This document shows, piece by piece, positions 2,780-6,676 of a stretch of 7,336 nt of DNA. Position numbers and translations under genes: made by a program. The notes below the pieces were generated by a model, which saw only the letters and a list, made by a program, of their open reading frames with translations, was not told the DNA's origin and searched no databases. Numbering within the stretch: the stretch's first letter is position 1; the number at the start of each line of letters is the position of its first letter. Origin of the DNA: a virus (lineage: Duplodnaviria; Heunggongvirae; Uroviricota; Caudoviricetes); the IMG/VR virus record IMGVR_UViG_2541047844_000003; one strand, 5' to 3'.

Positions 2780-3163
2780 ATGCGTGATATTCAGATGGTT
2801 CTTGAGCGTTGGGGAGCGTGGGCGGCTAATAATCATGAAGATGTGACCTGGTCGTCCATTGCCGCCGGTTTTAAGGGATTAATTCCTTCAAAAGTAAAAT
2901 CTCGCCCGCAATGTTGTGACGATGACGCGATGATCATTTGCGGGTGCATGGCCCGTCTGAAAAAGAACAACAGCGATTTGCACGATTTATTAGTAGATTA
3001 TTATGTAGTCGGTATGACATTCATGTCACTGGCAGGTAAGCATTGCTGCTCTGATGGTTATATCGGGAAAAGGTTACAAAAGGCTGAGGGCATAATTGAA
3101 GGGATGTTAATGGCATTAGATATCCGGTTAGAGATGGATATCGTTGTTAATAACTCTAATTAA
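2780..3163 (+). CDS. quuD: late-gene antitermination protein Q (phage 21/82-type Q family), 127 aa
   Basis: Product [26 protein letters not shown]... with Cys clusters ([15 protein letters not shown]), consistent with a small Q antiterminator; matches DLP12 QuuD as recalled. ATG at 2780 preferred over the track's upstream TTG at 2765 because GGAG lies about 8 nt upstream. Confidence 0.8.
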
Positions 3164-3196
3164 TATGCCAATTGTTTACTAAAAATTATTAAAAAT

Positions 3197-3214
3197 GGGG
3201 CGTTGAGACGCCCC
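3197..3214 (-). terminator. candidate rho-independent terminator for the nmpC transcript
   Basis: GGGGCG (3197-3202) / CGCCCC (3209-3214) stem with a 6-nt loop. On the minus strand the stem is followed by ATTTTTAATAATTTTT. About 140 nt beyond the nmpC stop. Confidence 0.4.
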
Positions 3215-3302
3215 CAAAAATAAAGGGTAATATATAACAGAAGGTTTATATAGTTAGAAGCAAGGTTGTGCTTCTAAAGGAAGTGGCTTGAGGGAGCCAC
3301 TT

Positions 3303-3344
3303 ATATGTTGGGGAGGCAACGCCTCCCGCAACATATCTTTTTCG
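3303..3344 (+). terminator. rho-independent terminator downstream of Q
   Basis: Long stem ATATGTTGGGGAGGC (3303-3317), loop AAC, GCCTCCC-g-CAACATAT (3321-3336, one bulged G), followed by CTTTTT (3337-3342). About 15 bp of pairing. Confidence 0.55.
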
Positions 3345-3352
3345 TAATCAGA

Positions 3353-4435
3353 TTAGAACTGGTAAACCAGACCTACAGCAACGATGTCATCAGTATCAAT
3401 ACCAGCTGTTTTGGTAAACTTACTATCGTCAATTAAGTTGATTTTGTAATCAACAAAAGTGGACATGTTTTTATTAAAGTAGTAAGTAGCACCGACATCG
3501 ACATACTTGACTAAGTCTCGGTCACCATGAACACCAAGGTCTTTACCTTTTGACTGAAGGTAAGCAACAGATGGGCGCAGACCGAAGTCAAACTGATATT
3601 GTGCTACTGCTTCAAAGTTTTGTGCTTTGTTTGCAATATGGTTATTACCAAAAACGGTCATATTCTGAGTTTCAGAATATGTGGTAGCCAGATAGATATT
3701 GTTCGCATCATATTTCAGGCCTGCAGCCCATACTTCCGCATTTTTGCCGGAGGCATTGAATTTGCTCTTACCATAGGCGACCTGACCGTCAGTGCGATCT
3801 GATTTAGCATAGGTTGCACCCACGCCGAATCCTTCATACTCATAAGTAGTGGAGAAACCGAAACCATCACCATTGGCTTCAGTTACGTCAGTGCGGTCAT
3901 TTTTACCCTGATACTGAGCAGCAAAGTTCAGGCCATCGACCAGACCAAAGAAGTCGTTGTTACGATAAGTTGCAACACCAGTAGTGCGACCAGTCATGAA
4001 CACATCTGTTTGGGTCCAGGTATCACCACCGAATTCTGGCAGGACGTCAGTCCACGCACCGATGTCGTATGCTACACCGTAGTTACGGCCGTAATCGATT
4101 GAGCCGTAATCACCAAATTTCAGGCCTGCAAATGCAAGACGGGTTTTGTCTTTGGAAGAACCTTGAGATTCAGCGCGGTTGCCTTTGAATTCATATTCCC
4201 ACTGACCGAAACCAGTCAGTTGATCGTTGATTTGGGTTTCACCTTTGAAGCCAAGACGGGCATAAGTAGTATCACCATCATCTGCATCATTAGAGGAGAA
4301 GTAGTGCTTAGCATTAACTTTCCCGTACAGATCCAGCTTGTTACTGTCTTTATTATAAATTTCAGCTGCCTGAGCAGACATCGCCATCAGTACTGATGCA
4401 GCTACAGCAGAAATTGCCACTGTTAATTTTTTCAT
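3353..4435 (-). CDS. nmpC: outer-membrane general porin, OmpC/OmpF/PhoE family (NmpC / Lc-type prophage porin), 360 aa, apparently intact
   Basis: Signal peptide [23 protein letters not shown] followed by AEIYNKD; porin-typical Gly/Tyr/Asp-rich beta-strand sequence; C-terminal ...VGLVYQF ending in Phe, typical of beta-barrel outer-membrane proteins. Opposite orientation between Q and the lysis genes, as in DLP12 and phage PA-2. Confidence 0.9.
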
Positions 4436-4645
4436 CGTGAGCCCTTTTTTTTGAACTATTATTAAAAAATGATGTCACTGCGCGATAAATATTCATCTAA
4501 TCAATGTGATTATTTCAAGATGTAAGTTTTGGTTTCTCGTTTAATTTGTGAAGTAGATCTCTATTTTTATCTGAACTTTTTTCTATCGAATCCTATTCAT
4601 GGCTCTTGGCTGAATAAAAATAAATCTATTAGCCAATTTATATTA

Positions 4646-4674
4646 ATGGCTGTTATTTATAAGTGCTCTATAAT
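4646..4674 (+). promoter_or_regulatory. candidate late-promoter (PR'-like) -10 element
   Basis: Perfect TATAAT at 4669-4674 with a poor -35 (ATGGCT at 4646-4651, 17-nt spacer), about 190 nt upstream of the terminator at 4864-4896. Flanked by inverted 9-mers AGCCAATTT (4631-4639) and AAATTGGCT (4690-4698). Speculative. Confidence 0.2.
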
Positions 4675-4863
4675 TTGAAGGTTCAATTTAAATTGGCTAA
4701 AAATAACGCTGGAAATTATTTGTTGGTTATTTGTTGAGATTTGCTTATGTATTTGTAGTGGTGTTTTCAATACTCGGTAGCATTCTCGCAAATATCATTT
4801 AGTGGTTTACGTACGTAAAAAATTGGTTATGCTGTTAAGAGTGGTTACTTCGTCACACAGCTT

Positions 4864-4896
4864 AAACCCGCCGTCGAGCGGGTTTTTCCATTTTTT
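4864..4896 (+). terminator. rho-independent terminator upstream of the lysis cassette (tR'-like)
   Basis: AAACCCGC (4864-4871) / GCGGGTTT (4878-4885) stem with loop CGTCGA, followed by TTCCATTTTTT. About 110 nt before the essD start. Confidence 0.55.
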
Positions 4897-5008
4897 GAGT
4901 CTCGATATTAGCTGATAACCCAATACCTGAGTTATTCACTGACTCCGAGTCTGTTACGTTTCGTAGTATTCCCTCAATTTACACCCGCTTTGTCTGCGAG
5001 GTGGGGTT

Positions 5009-5224
5009 ATGAAATCCATGGATAAGTTAACAACGGGTGTCGCCTATGGCACCTCAGCAGGTAGTGCCGGGTACTGGTTTTTACAGCTGCTCGATAAAGT
5101 CACGCCCTCACAGTGGGCAGCAATAGGTGTGCTGGGTAGCCTGGTATTTGGCCTGCTGACGTACCTGACAAACCTTTATTTCAAGATTAAAGAAGATAAG
5201 CGCAAGGCTGCGAGAGGTGAATAA
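5009..5224 (+). CDS. essD: class II holin (phage 21 S-type pinholin) with dual-start motif, 71 aa
   Basis: Product [71 protein letters not shown] matches S21 as recalled. Two in-frame starts (ATG 5009 and ATG 5018, Met1-Lys-Ser-Met4). Two hydrophobic segments and a basic C-terminus. GAGGTG upstream. Confidence 0.9.
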
Positions 5225-6185: not shown

Positions 6186-6358
6186 TAGCGATAATTTTAC
6201 TCATCATCCTTCACATCTGGCTCTGTAGACAGGGTGGTGCTCACTTCTGGAGTGAATCCAGATTAAACATCTCATTGCTGATGCTTGATATTGAGCATTT
6301 TGCGCGCGGTAAGGGGCTGCGTTGAGATAAGAGCCAGTCATTACAAATACCAGGATTT

Positions 6359-6385
6359 AGCCTCGCATTCGCGGGGCTTTTTATT
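6359..6385 (+). terminator. candidate rho-independent terminator after the lysis cassette
   Basis: Stem AGCCTCGC (6359-6366) / GCGGGGCT (6371-6378) with one G-U wobble, loop ATTC, followed by TTTTATT (6379-6385). Confidence 0.45.
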
Positions 6386-6394
6386 GCCATTACA

Positions 6395-6420
6395 AAAGCC
6401 ACTTCCTACAGAGTGGCTTT
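6395..6420. terminator. perfect 9-bp inverted-repeat hairpin, possible bidirectional terminator
   Basis: AAAGCCACT (6395-6403) / AGTGGCTTT (6412-6420) with an 8-nt loop; T-rich 3' flank on both strands. Confidence 0.35.
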
Positions 6421-6676
6421 GATAATGGCTTATACCCTACACGGGATAACTTAACTGATATCCCTTTTAAAGGATAAAGGTATTCAAGCCTGACACATCA
6501 TGCGCTGTATCGTCGCCGTATTCCCGTATTAACAGAGACCGTAGCCCGACGGGGAACTCCTTCTGCGCGAGTGTGCGGGAATAATCAATAACGATGCACA
6601 CCGGGGTTACCGGGTACACATATTTCATCATGCCAGCGAGTCCGGTTCTGGCACGGAAGAAACCGGACGTTATGAT

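Follow-up and report, generated by a model that had tools for sequence, protein, structure and literature searches.

A late promoter, candidate Q-binding site, and terminator of the Q21/Q933W type are separated from the Q gene by a porin gene in DLP12-type prophages

Results

The 7,336-nucleotide (nt) stretch of DNA analyzed herein (the window; IMG/VR virus record IMGVR_UViG_2541047844_000003) is part of a lambdoid prophage of the DLP12/434/PA-2 type, in which quuD, encoding the antiterminator Q, is followed by the porin gene nmpC on the minus strand and then by the lysis genes essD, rrrD, and Rz. Our subject is the 573-bp spacer between nmpC and essD (positions 4436-5008, bounded by the minus-strand start of nmpC at 4435 and by the start of essD at 5009), which has a GC content of 34%, versus 45% for the whole window. 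The element of interest within it is a late control module of the Q21/Q933W family as found in the DLP12/434/PA-2 lineage, composed of the late promoter PR', a candidate Q-binding site, and the terminator tR', and separated from Q by a porin moron. The spacer is 100% identical to chromosomal DNA in many Escherichia coli strains and is present in 2,662 of 5,426 complete E. coli genomes, or about half. On an identical copy, RefSeq gives the gene order ybcN, ninE, ybcO, rusA, ylcG, quuD, a porin gene on the opposite strand, essD, rrrD, and Rz; the K-12 prophage DLP12 has the same layout, with nmpC disrupted there by IS5. Spacer identity is 99% to PhiR26_1, 98.6% to phage 434, and 93.7% to PA-2, the last represented by a record that spans the lc porin gene (J02580; 1986, Blasband et al.). 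That the functional phages 434 and PA-2 share the spacer with the window supports the assignment given here.

Conservation within the spacer was assessed from an alignment of 33 distinct spacer versions from fetched loci. Two segments are almost invariant, 4401-4520 at the nmpC end and 4791-4910 toward essD, with a variability of 0.001-0.019 over the second of these versus 0.04-0.15 in the middle of the spacer. The most variable segment is 4581-4790; variability peaks there at 4671-4700, and no other 30-bp stretch of the spacer varies as much. An Rfam search of the whole window, with E values up to 1, returned no match in the spacer and two sub-threshold chance matches elsewhere.

The late promoter and its start

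The late promoter PR' lies on the plus strand in the second invariant segment (4806-4833), where a -35 element TTTACG (4806-4811) is followed, after 16 nt, by a -10 element TATGCT (4828-4833). It was recognized by homology to the annotated late promoters of VT2-Sakai, 24B, and Ss-VASD. Specifically, in a sensitive search of phage genomes, 4805-4887 alone matched 277 further records at 77-78% identity, mostly Shiga-toxin (Stx) phages, and these matches fall at the 3' end of the phage Q gene. The records of VT2-Sakai, 24B, and Ss-VASD annotate the matching stretch as a late promoter, a (putative) qut site, and a rho-independent terminator. In the alignment with the Stx phages, TAAGAGTGGTTAC is identical around the start, and the hairpin core, AACCCGCC...GCGGGTTTTT, is shared. 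The PR' pattern has its sole match in the window at 4806-4833, with 0.09 matches expected, and the element is the same in 32 of the 33 spacer versions. Further afield, a TAnnnT hexamer at -10 and an A run at about -23 to -19 are kept in 68 diverse variants anchored on the core of the module.

A mapped start accompanies this promoter. The K-12 Cappable-seq table (PMC4782308), of which we considered the plus strand, lists two starts in the nmpC-essD spacer, at U00096.2 576081 (score 90.2) and 576452 (score 1.7), and none between them. At this locus, the shift from U00096.2 to NC_000913.3 is +777, with which six of six neighboring starts become purines, while shifts of 776 or 778 put pyrimidines at half or more of those six. 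With the shift of +777, 576452 corresponds to NC_000913.3 577229 and to A4840 of the window, exactly the predicted +1, 7 nt after the -10 element. The late genes are thus preceded by a sigma-70 promoter from which transcription does start, although the signal is weak (score 1.7). The start in the Stx homologue is likewise supported: differential RNA sequencing (dRNA-seq) and Term-seq in Sakai separate the PR' start from the 3' end of tR' by 258 nt (PMC7547250), and in the VT2-Sakai record the second annotated terminator ends at just this distance from the homologous +1. The text of the Adams 2021 supplement has no entry for the nmpC-essD locus, and the ROSE supplement has nothing for it. An initial annotation of this DNA, made from the sequence alone, had expected a late-type promoter inside the spacer rather than directly after Q, with a plus-strand start somewhere in 4650-4860. 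The start at 4840 falls in that interval, such that the kind of promoter foreseen is there, although it lies 170 bases further downstream than proposed.

Around and after the start, the plus-strand block TAAGAGTGGTTACTTCGTCACA (4836-4857), which contains GTGG-N8-TCAC, is identical or nearly so across DLP12-type, Stx-type, and other prophages. We presume that this initial transcribed block is the region of pausing and Q loading. Its +1 to +18 portion is strongly conserved between the DLP12 and Stx types; the best hexamers in the window, TACTTC and GTTACT, are poor, and the Stx type has TACATT. The second "CRP site" annotated in PA-2 (window 4840-4860; 1730-1750 in locus L001) coincides with this conserved block and its GTGG-N8-TCAC. 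CRP is probably not the reason for its conservation, given that Stx phages without a porin gene retain the block as well.

Linkage of the module to Q

The gene upstream on the same strand, quuD (2780-3163), encodes a Q antiterminator of 127 amino acids in the Q21/Q933W family (PF06530, E value 8.5e-54; quuD in RefSeq). QuuD is 79% identical to the Q of VT2-Sakai over 126 amino acids and diverges only at the extreme C-terminus, in the last few residues, which is where the promoter overlaps the Q gene in Stx phages. It also matches the Q21 structures 6P18 and 6JNX (phmmer E value 7.6e-8), and the structural paper itself names a "Q21/Q933W family (Pfam PF06530)".

Scanning a viral contig collection for the core TAAGAGTGGTTACNTNGNCAC yielded 120 loci. 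In every locus with about 2.5 kb or more of upstream DNA, except one (L069), the same strand carries, further upstream, a Q of the QuuD family (39-100% identity). The distance from Q to the core falls into two classes across these 120 contigs, 41-75 nt or 632-2479 nt, and is 1671-1690 nt in the nmpC type.

The candidate Q-binding element (4809-4822) consists of the 8-bp palindrome ACGTACGT at 4809-4816, which is -31 to -24 relative to the start, followed by an A run; a wider dyad, TTTACGTACGTAAA, spans 4806-4819. Each Q clade has its own perfect palindrome of 8-9 bp at this same position (loci L013-L132): ACGTACGT with QuuD, ACGATCGT with Q933W, GCGTACGC and GCGGTCCGC in clades about 46-52% identical, and GTTATAAC, GGAATTCC, and TTCGTTACGAA in further clades. 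Distances between Q proteins correlated with distances between the 24-nt segments holding the palindrome (Mantel r = 0.62; 0 of 500 permutations as high), compared with r = 0.20 further upstream and 0.13 downstream of the terminator. Within one Q clade, the same palindrome is kept over up to eleven different Q-to-core distances. This constancy across differing distances argues for a functional matching of palindrome and Q, rather than mere adjacency, and we accordingly regard the palindrome as the probable site of Q binding.

The terminator

Downstream of the initial transcribed block lies the plus-strand intrinsic terminator tR' (4864-4896), with a stem AAACCCGC/GCGGGTTT, a 6-nt loop, and then TTCCATTTTTT. 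The initial annotation had marked a terminator here, and both the terminator scan and the fold agree: the hairpin (4864-4885) has an 8-bp stem and is followed by a T run that ends about 112 nt before essD. It is thus placed between the promoter and the late genes, and the terminator scan of the window picked up no second terminator between PR' and essD. The 61-nt RNA from +1 folds at -13.9 kcal/mol, with a z-score of only -1.4. Of 56 distinct variants, 54 have a hairpin with a T run between +43 and +66; their stems differ and are stronger in some clades. This retention despite different stems argues that terminator function, and not merely sequence, has been conserved. Homology to other contexts ends right after the hairpin (query position 452, window 4887), at a mosaic junction that marks the edge of the module.

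Two side observations concern this end of the spacer. First, a GCTGG variant at window position 4879, in the 3' arm of the stem, occurs in L001 and in 16 viral loci such as L013. Because it is common to 16 independent contigs, it is a real variant and not a sequencing error of 1986, and an alternative stem, CAGCUU/GAGCUG, may compensate for it. Second, in the laboratory-derived strain E. coli TUM24565 (L010), IS5 beside a truncated integrase replaces everything upstream of about window position 4799. This natural deletion leaves only the PR' block, the terminator, and the lysis genes in place and so detaches the late module from the remainder of the spacer.

The nmpC-proximal end

The opposite end of the spacer (4436-4565) belongs to the porin gene. 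An nmpC promoter within the spacer had been anticipated in the initial annotation, and one is on record: the sigma-70 promoter PnmpC was located within -199 to -1 of the nmpC start codon by deletion and 5' rapid amplification of cDNA ends in K-12, where its transcript begins at a G, CRP acts at two sites as an activator, and OmpR, IHF, and MprA act as repressors (PMC11677980). Further, the CRP site TGTGA-N6-TCTCT annotated upstream of the porin gene in PA-2 (J02580) maps by alignment to 4544-4564 and is the same in 32 of 33 spacer versions. A CRP-activated, minus-strand sigma-70 porin promoter therefore lies within 200 bp of the nmpC ATG. A hexamer scan predicts its core on the minus strand at 4489-4518, with a -35 element TTGAAA (4518-4513), an 18-nt spacer, a -10 element GAATAT (4494-4489), and a start at G4483 or G4481. 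This TTGAAA-N18-GAATAT arrangement is conserved in 32-33 of 33 spacer versions and is consistent with the published PnmpC.

The same end holds a strong plus-strand promoter (4457-4469), with a -10 element TATTAT (4457-4462) and, 7 nt after it, a start at A4469, the higher-scoring of the two K-12 Cappable-seq starts (U00096.2 576081, score 90.2). In 32 of 33 spacer versions this element is unchanged. Its start lies inside the predicted nmpC 5' untranslated region (UTR), such that the two transcripts would overlap head-on by about a dozen bases. A4469 is also the A of an ATG, and a leaderless open reading frame (ORF) of 18 codons follows (window 4457-4525). The segment 4450-4520 is absent from Q-family relatives without nmpC, and for this reason we count it as part of the porin cassette rather than of the late control unit.

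The middle of the spacer

Between these two ends, the spacer is poorly conserved AT-rich filler (about 4580-4790), to which we assign neither strand and in which no plus-strand start is called. It is here that the initial annotation had tentatively placed its promoter, a perfect TATAAT at 4669-4674 flanked by the inverted 9-mers AGCCAATTT (4631-4639) and AAATTGGCT (4690-4698), with the related motifs TTGGCTGAATAAAAATAAA (4606-4624) and TTGGCTAAAAATAAC (4693-4707). All of these motifs are present at those coordinates, and a repeat finder extends the inverted pair to 16 nt with 94% complementarity. Their frequency is nonetheless no more than chance in DNA of 34% GC. TATAAT occurs 4 times in the window versus 6.3 expected. 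When the spacer is shuffled with its dinucleotides preserved, 52% of the shuffles contain a plus-strand TATAAT, and 28% contain a perfect inverted repeat of 9 bp within 100 nt.

Nor are the motifs consistently retained. The right arm of the inverted repeat exists in 11 variants and is a perfect complement of the left arm in 4 of 33 spacer versions; it reads AAACCGGCT in K-12 and 434 and AAATCGGCT in PA-2, which breaks the repeat in all three. The second TTGGCT copy is likewise retained in 4 of 33 versions. Since neither is conserved, the 9-mers and TTGGCT repeats are unlikely to be operators. The TATAAT itself is retained in 29 of 33 versions and reads TATGAT in PA-2-type copies. The initial annotation had found no convincing -35 element for it, and we concur: the best match is two of six positions (ATGGCT or TGGCTG), and there is no TG extension. 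On the plus strand, K-12 Cappable-seq calls no start between the equivalents of 4469 and 4840, including the site of about 4681 expected from this hexamer. With no -35 element, incomplete conservation, a location in the most variable segment, and no downstream start, the tentative assignment of a promoter to this TATAAT fails. The terminated, 6S-like RNA of about 190 nt that had been derived from it gives way to a predicted one of about 50 nt (48-57 nt) from the start at 4840. Promoter prediction by itself would not have settled the matter, as the built-in promoter scan returned nothing in the spacer and the hexamer scan returned many equal-scoring AT-rich matches, neither of which decides without comparative and start-site data. 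Two small ORFs in this variable segment, 4529-4678 on the plus strand and 4657-4791 on the minus strand, were considered as genes and rejected, having no Pfam match.

The gap between Q and PR'

The core of PR' lies about 1.67 kb from the end of Q, with nmpC (3353-4435, minus strand; Porin_1 E value 1.9e-151, in agreement with the annotation) intact between them, and the layout is thus not the canonical one in which PR' adjoins Q. A search for a PR'-like pattern directly after Q (3163-3352) gave no match. This space is occupied by the nmpC 3' UTR (3197-3352, minus strand), which ends in an intrinsic terminator with a hairpin at 3214-3197 and which takes the place of PR' in Stx phages. A forced alignment suggested GTTTAC..TAAAAAT at 3173-3186 as a relic of PR'; other loci with cargo have nothing comparable after Q, showing cargo terminators instead, and we treat it as chance. 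The stretch 3164-3352 on the minus strand forms several stem-loops besides the terminator and has no Rfam match. We take it to correspond to ipeX, described by Castillo-Keller et al. in 2006, an RNA that reportedly lowers OmpC and OmpF.

The porin is not the only gene found in this position. In this Q family, the gap between Q and PR', which is 3164-4805 in the window, holds about 20 different cargo sets of 0.6-2.5 kb, nearly all on the opposite strand (L013-L132, L009, L011, and L012), and E. coli chromosomal loci show the same displaced layout. Cargo proteins match known or candidate defense genes, namely KwaB with its membrane partner (Kiwa), a KAP-family NTPase (PDC-S20), and PDC-M53A, as well as an HNH effector-like protein and NA37-family proteins. 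Judged from these comparisons, the region between Q and its loading site is a recurrent slot with many cargoes, the nmpC porin cassette among them. Cargo can be accommodated there since Q works in trans, on a DNA site, and the late transcripts begin only downstream of it.

The lysis genes and flanking features

Beyond the terminator, the essD leader with its ribosome-binding sites, together with essD itself, spans 4897-5224 on the plus strand. EssD is an S21-type holin with a dual start (PF04971) and the first late gene, and the record of phage 434 annotates ribosome-binding sites for S71 and S68. Pfam identifies Q (PF06530) and the porin in the window, together with the S21-type holin, a phage lysozyme, and Rz; the lysozyme is a signal-arrest-release (SAR) endolysin in the phage 434 annotation. 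Within the essD leader, PA-2-type copies and many copies of 90-96% identity carry a 16-bp insertion, CTGCTTTTTTGCGATA, between 4962 and 4963, which is absent from the window, K-12, and 434. Downstream of Rz, 6257-6448 on the plus strand weakly matches the Rfam family of the Hfq-binding small RNA STnc560 (19.9 bits versus a gathering score of 55); the region contains terminator-like hairpins, and the match is probably chance.

Discussion

Our results indicate, with good confidence, that the nmpC-essD spacer is a composite of three units, of which the essD-proximal one (4806-4896) is the late control unit for QuuD, separated from Q by the porin cassette. The first unit, the nmpC-proximal 130 bp or so (4436-4565), combines a CRP-activated sigma-70 porin promoter with an overlapping strong plus-strand promoter starting at 4469. 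The second (about 4580-4790) is AT-rich filler, and the TATAAT and repeats within it have no detectable function. The third comprises PR', a clade-specific palindrome, a conserved initial block, and a terminator at +25 to +57. The identification of 4806-4833 as the late promoter follows from its homology, its mapped start, and its linkage to Q. In the mechanism we propose, RNA polymerase would pause in the initial transcribed block, where Q would load. Without Q, transcripts from both PR' and 4469 would stop at the terminator, leaving a PR' RNA of about 50 nt and silent lysis genes. With Q, polymerase from PR' would become resistant to termination and read essD, rrrD, Rz, and later genes. Homology, the start at 4840, the linkage to Q, and the conservation of the hairpin are observations, from which we infer the binding of Q to the palindrome, the pausing, and the efficiencies of termination and antitermination. 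The same module abuts the Q gene in the 933W and Sakai Stx phages, with a reverse porin cassette (nmpC, its promoter, and its 3' UTR) intervening here.

Several points, in addition to those raised by the alternatives considered below, weigh against this reading. First, the Cappable-seq signal at 4840 is weak and comes from the defective K-12 prophage, and its score of 1.7 is said to lie close to the cut-off of that study. Second, the binding element of Q21 is a pair of direct TGAGCA repeats at about -21 and -13 (PMC6606751), rather than a palindrome at -31 to -24, and the solved member of the family therefore does not validate the proposed Q site. Third, a search of +1 to +20 for a -10-like pause element gave nothing convincing, the best hexamers being TACTTC and GTTACT. 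Finally, the conservation of the core across the 120 contigs is partly forced by the search pattern.

An alternative, which we regard as unlikely, is that the promoter of the lysis cassette lies at about 4450-4490, either as an RpoE-type promoter, essDp, with its +1 near 4484, or as the sigma-70 start at 4469, with Q acting on that transcript or with Q-independent, low-level use in biofilms or vesicle production. Rueggeberg and colleagues of the Hay laboratory reportedly assigned essDp to RpoE in 2015, and an abstract from that laboratory is said to describe it as dependent on both RpoE and Q. This, too, counts against the composite reading. The start at 4469 has about 50 times the signal at 4840 (a score of 90), the nmpC-proximal end of the spacer is nearly invariant, and a peak from systematic evolution of ligands by exponential enrichment (SELEX) with RpoS holoenzyme maps to the spacer. 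Further, a lux-fusion amplicon with primers at window positions 4363 and about 5133 is given as -121 to +650 from the essDp start (PMC7918800), which, on one ambiguous reading, suggests a +1 near 4484, just downstream of a sigma-E-like motif (GAACT 4453-4457, N17, TCACT 4475-4479). This motif resembles the arrangement in RpoE promoters, where a GGAACTT-type -35 element and a TCNAA-type -10 element are spaced by about 16 nt. However, "-121 to +650" could be a transposition of "-650 to +121" relative to the essD ATG, for which the primers give -646 and +125, and the mapped start nearest to the sigma-E-like motif is 4469, after the sigma-70-like TATTAT. The Q of this family loads only at a promoter-linked binding and pause site, and the conserved module linked to Q is 4806-4860, not 4450-4490. 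The absence of 4450-4520 from Q-family relatives lacking nmpC makes it part of the porin cassette, and any transcript starting at 4450-4490 must pass the terminator at 4864-4896.

Slightly less probable still is that the hairpin at 4864-4885 serves as a pause, Q-loading, or RNA-stability element rather than as an operative terminator, the lysis genes being silenced by a weak PR', by Rho, or by H-NS on AT-rich DNA. Two of the observations behind this alternative also speak against the composite: in the Sakai Stx phage, the homologous first hairpin is evidently passed, as the PR' RNA has a length of 258 nt and extends to a second terminator (PMC7547250), which the window does not have, and PA-2-type copies read GCTGG for GCGGG, which weakens the stem. 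The low fold z-score of the 61-nt RNA points in the same direction. The hairpin nevertheless has canonical terminator anatomy, with a GC stem, a 6-nt loop, and a T run, and it persists in nearly all variants despite their differing stems, reaching -13 to -18 kcal/mol in some clades. No other terminator lies from PR' to essD in the window, and K-12 tolerates the strong upstream promoter at 4469 without lysis. Finally, that the TATAAT at 4669-4674 is the late promoter of a 6S-like RNA of about 190-220 nt ending at 4864-4896, with the 9-mers and TTGGCT repeats as operators, is very improbable, since this perfect and largely retained -10 hexamer owes its top naive hexamer score purely to the -10 match, lacks a usable -35 element, a TG extension, and a mapped start, is altered in the functional phage PA-2, recurs in shuffled DNA along with its inverted repeat, whose right arm is hypervariable like the second TTGGCT copy, and lies in a segment that, unlike 4805-4887, has no homologue in other phages of this Q family.

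If the composite reading holds, it fixes the positions of the late promoter, its start, and its terminator for the DLP12, 434, and PA-2-type prophages, where current annotation is blank and the K-12 literature points to a different promoter for the lysis cassette. It also accounts for why a porin gene is tolerated between Q and the lysis genes, as a Q-loaded polymerase would never cross nmpC; because Q acts in trans at a DNA site, the insertion of nmpC would leave late transcription undisturbed. In practice, reporter fusions that contain the whole spacer would mix three promoters. The comparative results provide testable Q-binding candidates for the medically relevant Q933W family, which controls the release of Shiga toxin, and the presence of known defense systems in the cargo slot between Q and PR' offers a lead. 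More tentatively, and with somewhat less than even confidence, we suggest that the Q gene and its loading site form a split module whose gap is a recurrent slot for mostly reverse, lysogen-expressed cargo, that the palindrome implies a mode of Q-DNA recognition unlike that of Q21, and that the transcript from 4469 might couple the porin to the late region.

Comparison with known systems

Among characterized systems, the PR'-qut-terminator regions of the Stx phages 933W, VT2-Sakai, and 24B are like the window in the -35 element TTTACG, the 16-nt spacer, the TAnnnT -10 element, TAAGAGTGGTTAC, and the hairpin core. From the -35 element to the end of the first hairpin they are about 78% identical to the window, and their Q is 79% identical. 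They differ in arrangement and in detail. Specifically, the promoter overlaps the 3' end of Q in Stx phages, whereas it lies 1.67 kb away behind nmpC in the window; the center of the palindrome is ACGATCGT rather than ACGTACGT; and the possible pause hexamer is TACATT rather than TACTTC. In Stx phages, a second terminator follows 258 nt from +1, with the small RNA StxS and then tRNAs and stx, whereas the window has a single hairpin, 112 nt, and the holin gene. StxS is the 258-nt PR' transcript, which RNase E processes to a 74-nt Hfq-binding 3' fragment (Sy et al. 2020). The window does not encode an StxS, as the homology stops at the first hairpin (window 4887) and the 3' part of StxS is absent.

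Phage 21, with Q21 and PR'21, has a Q of the same family (PF06530) as the window, and the lysis genes of the window are also of the phage 21 type (S21 holin family and Phage_lysozyme endolysin). The two systems probably follow one logic as well, in which a sigma-70 promoter and a terminator are combined with a DNA site for Q upstream of the -10 hexamer (a candidate in the window) and with an early pause (presumed in the window). Q21, however, recognizes two direct TGAGCA repeats (about -21 and -13), whereas the window has an 8-bp candidate palindrome at -31 to -24, followed by an A run. The PR'-6S RNA-tR' region of lambda resembles the window in having a constitutive late promoter upstream of the lysis genes and a short transcript that is terminated unless Q is present. 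Unlike the window, lambda has a Q of an unrelated family (PF03589) and its PR' directly after Q, and there is no sequence similarity between the two. The lambda 6S RNA is 194 nt long, versus about 50 nt predicted here, and the predicted transcript of the window is thus not a 6S-like RNA of about 190 nt.

Finally, the PA-2 lc region (J02580) and the K-12 PnmpC region represent the same locus, at 93.7% and 98.6% identity, respectively, and have been treated in those studies as a porin control region only. One of the blocks so treated, the second "CRP site" of PA-2, is conserved in phages without a porin gene as well, and the comparison with these phages identifies the essD-proximal part of that region as the PR', candidate Q-binding site, and tR' of the Q21/Q933W family.

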